A stretch of 24,000 nucleotides of DNA from Thermanaerothrix solaris (lineage in GTDB: Bacteria; Chloroflexota; Anaerolineae; Anaerolineales; Anaerolineaceae): NCBI RefSeq assembly GCF_032334255.1, contig NZ_JAUHMF010000001.1, positions 1,766,366 to 1,790,365 on the forward strand, read 5' to 3'. The first letter of the stretch is position 1. Every line of letters starts with the position of its first letter. Below the pieces are notes generated by a model. It had not been told where the DNA came from, did no database searches, and saw nothing but the letters and a program-made list of their open reading frames with translations. The translations under genes and the position numbers were made by a program. Positions 20,649 to 22,777 of the stretch are shown here, piece by piece.

Positions 20649-20721
<73 letters not shown>

Positions 20722-20759
20722 CCTCATAATTTGAACCTTATCAACCCGCAAGTTCTAAA

Positions 20760-20867: not shown

Positions 20868-21338
20868 ATGGTTGCTCTTCCCACTCTAATCCCCCTTTCC
20901 GAAGCCGCCCGCAAGTATGGGCTGGACGAGGCTCGCTTGCGTGACTTGGTGGAGAAGGGTAAAATCCGAGCAGGAATATTCCCCGGTTCGGATGAGGTGC
21001 TCGTGAGCGAGGATGAGGTGAGAAGCGAAGCCATCCAGGAAAAAGGTCTCCGCAAAGAGGATTTGCCGGAGTATCAGAAGCACGCAGAAAAGCGTGGAAG
21101 GCCTATTTGGATTAGCGAGGCGGCGAGGAGATATGGTATTCCACACCAAACAATTATTCGGTGGGTTAAGTGTGGTTATATAAAACAATTGGGTGTAGAT
21201 AGAAACAAAGTTCTCATAGACGAGGCAGATATTGCTTATTGTTCTGAAATATACAAAAAACGCGGAAGACAAGGAAGAGTGTTATTCAACCCTGATGGAA
21301 CACCCTACAAACCAAAAACAGGTCCATTAGCCATGTAG
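20868..21338 (+). CDS. tandem helix-turn-helix DNA-binding protein (excisionase/MerR-type HTH x2)
   Basis: Two similar modules: LIPLSEAARKYGLDEARLRDLVEKGKIRAG...LVSEDEV and WISEAARRYGIPHQTIIRWVKCGYIKQLG...LIDEADI. AT-rich codon usage. No clear Shine-Dalgarno. Confidence 0.62.
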   Translation: MVALPTLIPLSEAARKYGLDEARLRDLVEKGKIRAGIFPGSDEVLVSEDEVRSEAIQEKGLRKEDLPEYQKHAEKRGRPIWISEAARRYGIPHQTIIRWVKCGYIKQLGVDRNKVLIDEADIAYCSEIYKKRGRQGRVLFNPDGTPYKPKTGPLAM

Positions 21339-21366
21339 CGGCAGAAAGCCGCTTTTTTTTATTTTT
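21337..21366 (+). terminator. Rho-independent terminator
   Basis: AGCGGC (21337-42), loop AGAAA, GCCGCT (21348-53), followed by TTTTTTTTATTTTT. It overlaps the TAG stop. Confidence 0.78.
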
Positions 21367-21369
21367 AAT

Positions 21370-21395
21370 CTGCACAAGTATTGACACTTGTGCAG
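21370..21395. promoter_or_regulatory. perfect 10-bp palindrome CTGCACAAGT-N6-ACTTGTGCAG overlapping the -35 box (candidate operator)
   Basis: Read directly. 21370-79 is the reverse complement of 21386-95. The TTGACA -35 box sits in the centre. Confidence 0.5.
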
Positions 21396-21410
21396 AATTT
21401 ATGTTATACT
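21381..21410 (+). promoter_or_regulatory. strong extended -10 sigma70 promoter
   Basis: TTGACA (21381-86), 18-nt spacer ending in TGt, then TATACT (21405-10). Confidence 0.62.
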
Positions 21411-21416
21411 CCTCAT

Positions 21417-22173
21417 AGCACCTTTCCAAACCACCTGCTAACTGCCCCGACAAATACAACGCCCCGCCGGGCGTTGTGCGCCCGACAGGGCGCTCCGTGA
21501 GCCGTGTGGGTGCACGCTCACGGTCGAGGCAAGCAAACCAACTGCTCACCTCATCTGCGATTGTAGCATGAGATGACAGCCCTCTGCAAGCCTCTCACAA
21601 GGAATGTGATTTGCAGAGGGCTTTGTGTTTCCCGTGCGGTGTTGGCTCAAAGCCTTTCAGGCGGCAGGTGCGTGAGGGCGGGTTCAAGTCCCGCCCGCCT
21701 GAATTCCGTTTTTGCCACGCTAACGTCGGCCGTGTAGGGAGGCGGGAGCGGGGCTGAGTCATCAGCACCTGGCGGGGCAAGGGACGGGGAGCCCTTGTCT
21801 GACGGAGCGGCAGGTGAGACCGGCGGAAGCCTGCCGGGGGACGTGACAGCCGGGAGAGACCGGCACATTCAGCACCTTACCAGTTGAGCATGATCCATCT
21901 CCAATCCAACCGCCGAAGGTGGGCAGGAGGCTCCCCGATCCTGCGGTGGGTGCAAGTCCCACCCGGTTGGACTGCCAAACCTGTCGGGGTCGTTGCCCCA
22001 ACAACGGGCAGGTGCAGCCCGGCGCACCCTGGCCAGCGCCGGGAAACAGGCAGGGTGACAGCCCGGAGAGACGGGCATGCAGAGGGGTTGGGGCTGAATC
22101 GGCCCAGCGAAGGCGAGGCAGACCCTCAAAGAGCCGGACGTGCGCGAGGGCAACCCCTCTGCCACTTCACCAC
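21417..22173 (+). ncRNA. candidate large structured non-coding RNA locus (unclassified; possibly more than one RNA)
   Basis: It lies between a consensus promoter and a tRNA. It has no credible ORF. It is GC-rich and holds at least 12 perfect stems of 5-12 bp, two T-loop hairpins, three TGACAGCC-hairpin units and a 12-bp long-range stem (22079-90 / 22151-62). Copies of the repeated hairpins differ only by compensatory pair changes. The ends are estimates. Confidence 0.5.
21578..21630 (+). terminator. terminator-like extended hairpin inside the RNA locus
   Basis: A 12-bp perfect stem AGCCCTCTGCAA (21578-89) / TTGCAGAGGGCT (21611-22) carries an inner stem TCACA-AGGAA-TGTGA and is followed by TTGTGTTT. 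Confidence 0.45.
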
Positions 22174-22245
22174 GCGGGAGTAGCTCAACGGAAGAGCGGC
22201 GGCGTCATGAGCCGCAGGGTGAGGGTTCGAATCCCTCTTCCCGTT
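22174..22245 (+). tRNA. tRNA with anticodon CAT (Met, or Ile2 if lysidine-modified), island-borne
   Basis: Manual cloverleaf: acceptor GCGGGAG/TTCCCGT (G1.U72 and G7.U66 wobbles), D arm GCTC-AACGGAA-GAGC, anticodon arm GCGGC-GTCATGA-GCCGC, variable AGGGT, T arm GAGGG-TTCGAAT-CCCTC. No encoded CCA. Confidence 0.7.
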
Positions 22246-22261
22246 CTGGGAGTGAGCAACC

Positions 22262-22777
22262 ATGAAAATCAGAATGCCGCTGGAAGAAGCCGAACGAATT
22301 GCGCTGAAATACGCCGAAATGCTTGCGCCAAAATGCGAGAGGGTCGAGATCGCCGGGAGTATTCGGCGGCGCAAGGCAGAGGTGGGAGACATTGAGATGG
22401 TGGCAAAGCCGCTGCCTGCGTTTGACCTGTTTGGCTCTCCGAATGGCTATCACGATCTTTCCATACCGTTACCAGCGGTCAAGGACGGGCAACGATACAA
22501 GCAGTACACCCTGCCCGAAGGAATACATCTTGACCTGTTCATCGTTTTACCCCCGGCACAATGGGGAGTAATCTTTGCTCTGCGCACCGGCGGAGCAGAG
22601 TTCTCTCGTAAACTGGTCACGGCGAAACGATACGGCGGTTACCTGCCGTCTGCTTACGTGGTGAGAGACGGCGCGGTTCATCGTGTTGATACCGGGGAGA
22701 TCATCCCTACCCCCGAAGAAATTGATTTTTTCAATCTCTGTGAACTGGGCTGGATCAAGCCCGAAGAGAGGAATTGA
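22262..22777 (+). CDS. minimal DNA polymerase X-family (Pol beta-like) nucleotidyltransferase, palm plus C-terminal subdomain only
   Basis: GSIRRRKAEVGDIEMV matches the G-S...D-x-(D/E) NTase motif. HLDLFIV supplies the third carboxylate. FALRTGGAEFSRKLVTAKRYG parallels LyFTGS..FN..lR..A...G of Pol X. The C-terminal PEEIDFFNLCELGWIKPEERN parallels the Pol X terminal sEeeIf..LGL.yIpPe.R motif. Confidence 0.72.
   Translation: MKIRMPLEEAERIALKYAEMLAPKCERVEIAGSIRRRKAEVGDIEMVAKPLPAFDLFGSPNGYHDLSIPLPAVKDGQRYKQYTLPEGIHLDLFIVLPPAQWGVIFALRTGGAEFSRKLVTAKRYGGYLPSAYVVRDGAVHRVDTGEIIPTPEEIDFFNLCELGWIKPEERN

Follow-up and report, generated by a model that had tools for sequence, protein, structure and literature searches.

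Two 23-nucleotide repeats upstream of a tRNA-Met gene in Thermanaerothrix solaris belong to a widespread phage RNA module uncatalogued in Rfam

What are two almost identical 23-nucleotide (nt) sequences doing in a structured region just upstream of a tRNA gene of Thermanaerothrix solaris? The stretch analysed, referred to as the window, comprises 24,000 nt of contig NZ_JAUHMF010000001.1 (assembly GCF_032334255.1, positions 1,766,366 to 1,790,365 of the forward strand), and coordinates below are window positions unless another sequence is named. An earlier note on this DNA had described the pair as a module that was duplicated and kept under selection for RNA structure, possibly with a switching element. 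Copy A, GTGACAGCCGGGAGAGACCGGCA, is present at 21843-21865 (+) and copy B, GTGACAGCCCGGAGAGACGGGCA, at 22055-22077 (+). The two copies differ at two positions only, G at 21852 becoming C at 22064 and C at 21861 becoming G at 22073. These substitutions fall on the two partners of the fourth pair in a 5-base-pair (bp) stem, P2, which is G-C in copy A and C-G in copy B. Copy A consists of a GU that ends an upstream helix (P1), the linker GACA, P2 at 21849-53/21860-64, a loop at 21854-59 and a 3' A; in copy B, P2 lies at 22061-65/22072-76 around a loop at 22066-71, and the loop reads GAGAGA in each. A search of the 24-kb window allowing up to three mismatches to the 23-mer finds these two sites alone, and none is found in 100 dinucleotide-preserving shuffles.

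Both sites are instances of a phage RNA module that is widespread and uncatalogued in Rfam. The core of the module consists of a variable hairpin, P1 (AC...GU), a linker GAC(A/G), the 5-bp stem P2 and a loop GA(G/A)AGA, usually followed by an A. In 101 non-redundant viral instances, the GU opening the 23-mer closes the upstream helix P1, with the form 5'-R-A-C-N-N-N...N-N-N-G-U. Within 60 nt, 78/101 instances have a P1 stem of 5 bp or more, compared with 23-30/101 at shifted registers, and the P1 loop ranges from 3 to more than 60 nt, always closing on AC/GU. An alignment of 36 sequences was used to build a covariance model, R1; P1 pairing was a selection criterion for this alignment, so its 100% P1 pairing is not independent evidence. 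In secondary, non-anchor matches, the constrained parts are (G/C)UGAC(A/G), the closing G-C pair, the loop GA(G/A)AGA and, usually, the 3' A. Applied to the window, R1 scores copy A at 41.7 bits and copy B at 38.5 bits, with the next match at 12 bits.

The pairing of P2 was examined with a search pattern that leaves its three middle pairs free, which yields 184 distinct instances. All free pairs are complementary in 177 of these and in 32 of the 39 stem types, where about 5% would be expected by chance; the types include CCG/CGG, CCC/GGG, CUC/GAG, CCU/AGG, CGU/ACG and CAU/AUG. P2 is therefore a selected hairpin, as the earlier note had proposed from the single flip between copies A and B, and across the family its two halves covary rather than drift independently. 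Because both P1 and P2 covary and P1 varies in length, the element is an RNA. A free stem combined with a fixed loop, a fixed closing pair and a fixed 5' linker is the pattern typical of a hairpin recognised in a sequence-specific manner. Downstream of P2, the consensus is A, then C/A, then C, with C at +1 in 45% and at +2 in 57%. Upstream of P1, no larger universal 5' block is found, conservation there being confined to subfamilies, and no conserved pseudoknot or third helix accompanies the two simple hairpins.

A signal acting at the DNA level (a promoter, an operator, a recombination linker or an att-associated site) is suggested by the location of the motif at gene boundaries, by its contact with integrase genes in phages Alexa and RcCWillis, and by the likeness of GTGACA to a -35 hexamer and of the 5' AAC...CGT to boxes of the extracytoplasmic function (ECF) type. 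The variable length of the P1 loop, which is nevertheless always AC/GU-closed, is incompatible with fixed promoter spacing. The stem changes are compensatory and of many types, no -10 element lies at the required distance downstream, and the motif is co-oriented with the downstream genes in 7 of the 9 annotated phages checked. A DNA-level role is accordingly very improbable. Sigma-70, ECF and sigma-54 promoters were rejected in particular, with no -10 found 17 nt after GTGACA and with bases between AAC and CGU that pair over a spacing of 3 to more than 60 nt.

The module is phage-specific and occurs in phages and prophages with hosts of many phyla. Counts from the scans of sequence collections are lower bounds, and the anchor instances were picked by exact pattern, so that invariance within them is by construction. 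The pattern GTGACAGCCSGGAGAGACSGGCA is found in at least 120 IMG/VR viral contigs and in at least 115 genome stretches from bacterial collections holding one genome per species. The bacterial carriers span many phyla, including Rhodobacterales, Microcoleus, Planctomycetota, Anaerolineae, Myxococcota, Bacteroidota, Clostridia, Treponema, Saccharibacteria, Beta- and Gammaproteobacteria, Acidobacteriota and Verrucomicrobiota. Some 20-30 records of cultured phages, about 15 distinct phages, contain the 23-mer core. The motif or its variant with a GAAAGA loop is carried by Cronobacter phages CS01, SG01 and ESP2949-1, E. coli phage mEp390, Klebsiella phage P7641, Pseudomonas phage Medea1, Stenotrophomonas phage Pokken, Planktothrix/Synechococcus phage MinM2, Microcystis phage Mwe-JY26 and Rhodobacter phage RcCWillis. 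Among plasmids, only 7 of 72,556 records match a 49-nt query, about 6 of those over the 23-mer core.

This family is absent from the resources searched. The 4227 models of Rfam 15, among them riboswitches, ribozymes, phage motifs, GOLLD/ROOL, C4 and Mu-gpT-DE, gave nothing over either copy when run on 21300-22300 at E<=10, the only hits in that interval being the tRNA and chance-level matches. Thirteen viral loci compared with Rfam at the gathering threshold returned tRNAs only and no family at the motif. In the searchable literature, exact-sequence searches found the letters of the motif in no paper; keyword searches led to put, canT, Aca RNA motifs, a catalogue of viral structured RNAs and UG27 noncoding RNA arrays, none of which matched. 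The unit motif of UG27 type, AUCN7UANAG, was not seen by eye in locus L040 or in the window element called module 0 below, the two places inspected. Homologous prophage leaders in E. coli carry no RefSeq annotation.

Membership in such a family changes the account of how the pair arose. About 20 of 100 loci contain two or three same-strand copies separated by 60-300 nt, often one canonical and one degenerate, which makes the 212-nt pair of the window typical. The copies are members of a dispersed phage motif that commonly sits in same-strand clusters, and the earlier note's reading of a duplicated module, taken as a local origin, is not supported. A CRISPR or solitary repeat (an RNA anti-CRISPR) and a TIGR array were likewise set aside, given the irregular spacing of the copies (60-600 nt) and the lack of any cas or tas family in the loci.

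The structural claim can be followed among close relatives of the window. The copies lie in an RNA of about 755 nt that recurs as a whole, with 70-87% identity, at two loci of Bellilinea caldifistulae and in a Thermanaerothrix metagenome-assembled genome (MAG), Anaerolinea thermolimosa and a Chloroflexota MAG, and RNAs of the window type are found in prophage-like elements of Anaerolineae. B. caldifistulae GOMI-1 holds two copies of the whole element (contigs 8 and 3; L212, L217), about 87% identical to the window. At 21840-65, which is the 23-mer of copy A with three additional bases on its 5' side, all six sequences are invariant, compared with 70-87% identity in the flanks. Copy B is under weaker constraint: Bellilinea has GACGG at this site, and the Thermanaerothrix MAG has lost the hairpin. 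The stem at this site is GCCGG/CCGGC in A. thermolimosa versus GCCCG/CGGGC in the window and three other orthologs, so the compensatory flip seen between the two window copies recurs between orthologous sites.

The same alignment bears on the switch. The repeated half-sites of the earlier note exist, GAGACCGGC at 21816-24 and 21856-64 and CAGCCCGG at 22015-22 and 22059-66. The GGC of the upstream GAGACCGGC sits in the loop of a separate hairpin and varies among orthologs (AUC, GCG, GUU, AAG), and the upstream CAGCCCGG remains GCCCGG in the ortholog whose stem became GCCGG/CCGGC. Since these half-sites do not track the stem changes, the proposed alternative pairings are without support, and so is the switching element. 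A riboswitch was also rejected: tRNAs start 3-9 nt downstream, the half-sites show no covariation, and the motif has no alternative pairing that is conserved. For a cobalamin riboswitch, AGCC..GGAGA..GGC and GGUG.AAGUCC look like a B12 box by eye, but no RF00174 hit appears at E<=10.

The P1 helices of the window are less clear than P2. For copy A, the candidate 5' strand is ACGUC at 21723-21727 (+), preceded by A, which would pair with GACGU at 21840-44 over an insert of about 110 nt. For copy B, the candidate is ACCCUG at 22026-22031 (+), which would pair with CAGGGU at 22051-56, and RNAalifold favours an alternative long-range partner, CACCUUA at 21872-78.

Where the module has a same-strand tRNA downstream, in 14 cases, the gap between the two is 3-9 nt in 11 of them. 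tRNA-Met(CAT) accounts for eight of the 14, and several of these show the GGG/CCC anticodon stem that marks initiator tRNAs, which suggests that phage-encoded initiator tRNAs are a preferred downstream partner. This hallmark is carried by the tRNA-Met genes that follow the motif by 3-9 nt in L127, L172, L214, L231 and L233. Locus L040 mirrors the design of the window, with three copies, then a tRNA-Met, then an open reading frame (ORF). In the 358-kb IMG/VR contig L085, a jumbo-phage segment with 13 tRNAs and a tmRNA gene, two motif copies stand directly upstream of a tRNA-Met/tRNA-Pro pair. The motif heads the tRNA array of the N4-like phage Pokken and lies inside that of Mwe-JY26. In loci without a tRNA, a plausible start codon is usually found 3-40 nt downstream. 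The motif precedes the terminase genes in CS01 and lies in a divergent promoter region in MinM2; many other copies sit between co-oriented structural genes.

The module needs no neighbouring gene. Genes upstream and downstream of it fall into about 100 unrelated clusters each, and all-against-all clustering of 4,635 ORFs gave no co-located protein family beyond a largest one in 28 of 120 loci. Because it precedes tRNAs, the module does not need translation, and a role in translation alone is unlikely for an element located before tRNAs and in untranslated leaders. The region in the window is not translated: 21340-22173 contains only overlapping ORFs in several frames, none of them with family hits, and is flanked by a tRNA. 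The motif region of Pokken, an N4-like phage, is presumably read by a phage polymerase, in which case host RNA polymerase is probably not needed.

The explanation favoured here, and only tentatively, is that the hairpin may be recognised by some factor, mark phage transcripts 5' of tRNAs and genes, and act after transcription. The module would then be a host-independent structured RNA, made of a P1 closed by A-C/G-U, the GAC(A/G) linker and a P2 with a free stem, and would follow the logic of recognition hairpins such as lambda boxB or coat-protein operators. It would stand as a mark at the 3' end of an untranslated spacer, with a tRNA or ORF directly behind it, and a conserved trans factor would bind it there and control the processing or survival of the flanking RNA. 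We infer that such a trans factor recognises the module and that the effect falls on RNA processing, end protection, factor loading or stability. In the window, two clear copies and possibly a third, diverged one would punctuate a promoter-driven leader of about 755 nt that ends in a live tRNA-Met.

Several observations weigh against this explanation. It has to assume a factor that is conserved across very many phyla, and the tight spacing to tRNAs could merely mirror the compactness of phage genomes. The next gene is 100-435 nt away from the motif in several cultured temperate phages, and in RcCWillis the motif is antisense to the flanking genes. The start-codon distances in GC-rich contigs come from crude ORF calling, and the P1 helices of the window's own copies are inferred. 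The same crude calling was also tried for the intergenic geometry and failed in GC-rich contigs, where 63 of 114 sites fell within spurious ORFs.

The position directly before tRNAs also fits a passive role, in which P2, after endonucleolytic cuts by RNase P (at the tRNA 3-9 nt downstream) or by other enzymes, caps the 3' end of the upstream fragment or forms a 5'-proximal stem on the downstream mRNA and so blocks exonucleases. Consistent with this, the motif abuts tRNA 5' ends, is orientation-specific and multi-copy, is accompanied by no conserved expression platform, and lies in the spacers that follow strongly expressed genes, for instance Mu-like major head genes recognised by eye in the sequence. 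In L029, a rare exception, the P2 hairpin is itself followed by a U-tract. A protective hairpin, on the other hand, requires no fixed loop, linker or closing pair, and conservation at the level of letters across phyla is left unexplained, which makes mere punctuation or stabilisation unlikely. An intrinsic terminator was rejected, as no T-run follows either window copy and the family consensus after P2 is A, C/A, C. Mimicry of a tRNA or its acceptor end, as a mini-substrate of RNase P, was rejected as well: ARAGORN and the Rfam tRNA model do not call the motif, and of the features that would make up the resemblance (G:C, A, CC), unbiased copies conserve neither the first pair nor the 3' A nor the CC.

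Temperate phages bring antitermination into view. In mEp390, P7641 and Medea1, the motif lies in long unannotated leaders beside the immunity region. In the PL-like leader of mEp390, a degenerate copy (2258-2313) is followed by another copy (2501-23) and, ahead of the genes, by what reads by eye as a terminator-like hairpin and its T-run (about 2645-2690). An annotated hypothetical protein of 80 amino acids, gp36 (L236, 2229-2471), overlaps the degenerate copy in this leader; its ORF is probably spurious, because no gene is called at the homologous positions of 36 E. coli RefSeq genomes. Such leaders recall the nut and put systems, in which the nascent RNA acts in cis, and a two-hairpin RNA could, either unaided or together with an N-like peptide or Nus-type factors, modify RNA polymerase for read-through of operons, untranslated leaders and tRNA arrays. 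The module resembles lambda nut boxB in its 5-bp GC-rich stem, its all-purine GNRA-like loop, its combination of a free stem with a fixed loop and its presence in a lambdoid early leader (mEp390), and is likewise proposed to act in cis on nascent RNA. With HK022 put, EAR and Tn916 canT it shares a pair of neighbouring stem-loops, about 50-70 nt in length and located behind early promoters; those RNAs need no dedicated protein, and put-like independence of protein would explain the missing partner gene. RNA polymerase, being conserved in all phyla, would explain both the conservation of the motif and that missing partner. The window copies, moreover, lie downstream of a strong promoter, and the motif heads tRNA arrays.

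The module also differs from these systems. The loop of the module has 6 nt (GAGAGA/GAAAGA) versus 5 in boxB, and a fixed GAC(A/G) linker and an upstream P1 stand in place of boxA; no boxA (CGCUCUUA-like) is found 5' of P2 in 101 instances, where the flank is (G/C)-G-U-G-A-C-A preceded by P1. The module extends far beyond lambdoid phages, upstream of tRNAs and into an N4-like phage, where transcription is probably by the phage polymerase. No shared family representing an N-like gene occurs near the motif, in a BLAST clustering for which N-like peptides are too divergent. Compared with put, there is no similarity in sequence or model, and put has been aligned from only ten sequences while the module spans many phyla; R1, run with filters off over HK022 22000-34000, gave no relevant match in this immunity region, the best being 11.4 bits inside IS903. 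The motif is present in cyanophages, and as their hosts generally have no Rho, an anti-Rho role cannot apply throughout. By a strict scan, a terminator lies within 100 nt downstream in just 13 of 295 instances, and a 3-fold bump at 0-100 nt in a loose scan was not accepted as enrichment. Many copies lie between co-oriented structural genes, and in the window a terminator-like hairpin lies before the copies. Antitermination of the nut or put kind is thus a doubtful explanation, with something in its favour.

A self-contained RNA that acts with no protein partner, be it a small self-cleaving ribozyme of a new type or an RNA that takes up a universal small molecule as aptamer or sponge, would sit well with a module of about 45-50 nt that has few invariant nucleotides and covarying stems, is intergenic, near tRNAs, often tandem and cross-phylum, and has no linked gene. 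Cross-phylum conservation of sequence is typical of catalytic cores and aptamers. The small ribozymes of phages (hammerhead, twister, pistol, hatchet and the HDV-like theta ribozymes by tRNAs) resemble it in size, in a conserved core with covarying stems, in intergenic or tRNA-adjacent position, in tandem occurrence and in cross-phylum range. Unlike them, the module is simple, with two hairpins and without a pseudoknot, third helix or multi-way junction; it lacks an expression platform, and no ribozyme or riboswitch model of Rfam 15 matches it even at E<=10. A ribozyme or aptamer therefore appears quite unlikely.

Two further systems show partial parallels. The SAS/ESAS elements of Cluster K mycobacteriophages are a short conserved sequence with an upstream inverted repeat, located 5' of many unrelated genes, with no known function; SAS is cluster-specific, overlaps the ribosome-binding site and does not stand before tRNAs. 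The module is similarly repeated just 5' of many unrelated phage genes, but it spans phyla and also precedes tRNAs. The GOLLD/ROOL RNAs of prophages often lie directly beside a tRNA, as does the structured, untranslated RNA of about 755 nt in the prophage-like element of the window. There is no Rfam hit to either family, however, and the window RNA looks modular, as if assembled from repeated modules and remnants of a tRNA-like kind. It is conserved within Anaerolineae only, in contrast to the global spread of the 23-mer module.

In the window, the region is preceded by a host-like ABC transporter pair, then by a tRNA-Lys (20649-20723) and by an HTH_17/excisionase-like gene (20868-21338), which ends at an intrinsic-terminator-like hairpin with a T-run at 21337-21353 (+). 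A sigma-70-type promoter, TTGACA-18-TATACT, follows at 21381-21410 (+), with 11 of 12 positions matching and an extended -10, and its -10 region is conserved in the orthologs. A perfect 11-bp inverted repeat, TCTGCACAAGT/ACTTGTGCAGA (21369-79/21386-96), overlaps the -35 hexamer of this promoter. The repeat, at 21369-21396, has the look of an operator to which a dimeric regulator would bind, and the HTH_17 protein encoded next to it is a possible candidate. After the promoter come about 755 nt of strongly structured RNA, with a fold of -420 kcal/mol (z = -8.0) on the + strand and z = -3.8 on the - strand.

The 5' domain of this RNA (21417-21572, +) consists of three hairpins and a fourth stem, and is near-invariant over six Anaerolineae loci. 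Behind it lies module 0 (21574-21631, +), formed by TGACAG, a 12-bp terminator-like stem at 21578-89/21611-22 and UUUGUGUUU. The stem is opened by a third TGACAGCC at 21574-81, as the earlier note had seen; this sequence occurs three times in the window (0.9 expected), each time on the + strand and between 21574 and 22063. Module 0 is not matched by R1, and its homology to the motif is uncertain. At 21578-21631 it has the features of an intrinsic terminator, a GC-rich hairpin and a U-tract, and such a hairpin and tract are found about 170-230 nt after the promoter in all orthologs, with stems that differ but compensate. The near-invariant part of the 5' domain, about 130 nt, and the covarying hairpin with U-tract that follows it in every ortholog (together 21417-21631) could be a small RNA of about 210 nt, or an attenuator or riboswitch-like leader that gates the downstream RNA; no Rfam family matches this segment.

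Downstream of module 0, tRNA-like remnants alternate with the motif copies. Minihelix 1 (21656-21703, +) has an acceptor-like CAGGCGG/CCGCCUG around a T-arm, GGCGGG-UUCAAGU-CCCGCC (21677-97), whose stem covaries among orthologs and where a weak mascRNA-like Rfam hit is found (E=0.16). The hairpin CGGCAGG...CCUGCCG (21808-21837, +), with GAGACC..GGAAG in its loop, contains the upstream GAGACCGGC and has a stem that covaries in orthologs; copy A comes after it. The second tRNA-like element, a degenerate tRNA (21902-21974, +), comprises an acceptor-like stem at 21902-12/21964-74, an inner stem-loop and a T-arm at 21945-65 (GGUGGG-UGCAAGU-CCCACC), and is not called by ARAGORN. Neither remnant is called by tRNA finders, and their T-arm loops read UUCAAGU and UGCAAGU; the two T-arms are a diverged duplicate of each other, with compensatory changes GGCGGG/CCCGCC vs GGUGGG/CCCACC. 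Copy B is followed by a long hairpin (22079-22162, +) on a 12-bp base, 22079-90/22151-62, which is absent in the Bellilinea contig_3 ortholog, one of the two GOMI-1 copies of the element.

The RNA ends at a tRNA-Met (CAT) at 22174-22246 (+), co-oriented with the motif copies. Its anticodon loop is unusual, with G32 and G37 (GUCAUGA), and the acceptor stem has a G-U pair at either end. This tRNA does not resemble an initiator, in contrast to several tRNA-Met genes after the motif in other loci. The whole RNA can be described as three units of a module followed by a tRNA-like element, of which the last is the live tRNA-Met, and we infer from this order that it is a decayed phage tRNA array. Directly after the tRNA, an ORF of 171 amino acids (22262-22777) has a hit to the DNA polymerase beta thumb, a weak palm hit and no PHROG match; by these domain hits, it is a putative minimal PolX-like nucleotidyltransferase.

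In conclusion, the finding is larger than the window, being a widespread phage RNA module and not just a local repeat pair. The 23-base core is identical in phages of Proteobacteria, Cyanobacteria, Chloroflexota, Planctomycetota, Bacteroidota, Clostridia, Spirochaetes, Saccharibacteria and others, and an identical core, within an RNA of about 45 nt, across such hosts implies either a constraint common to all of them or a self-sufficient RNA. It is possible, though far from assured, that the module, conserved letter for letter in phages of at least a dozen bacterial phyla, is a phage RNA device of a new, host-independent class. It would then be a novel small ribozyme or aptamer, or else a hairpin capturing RNase P, RNA polymerase, the ribosome or a widely shared defence protein, and would be deployed before genes and tRNAs, initiator-type tRNA-Met included. 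The module serves as an annotation marker for phage-derived untranslated regions and decayed tRNA arrays, and is directly testable in cultured phages of E. coli, Cronobacter, Klebsiella and Pseudomonas. Knowledge of the partner or activity of the module could bring to light a new counter-defence RNA, a ribozyme or aptamer of a new type, or a general means by which phages control the expression of tRNAs and mRNAs.

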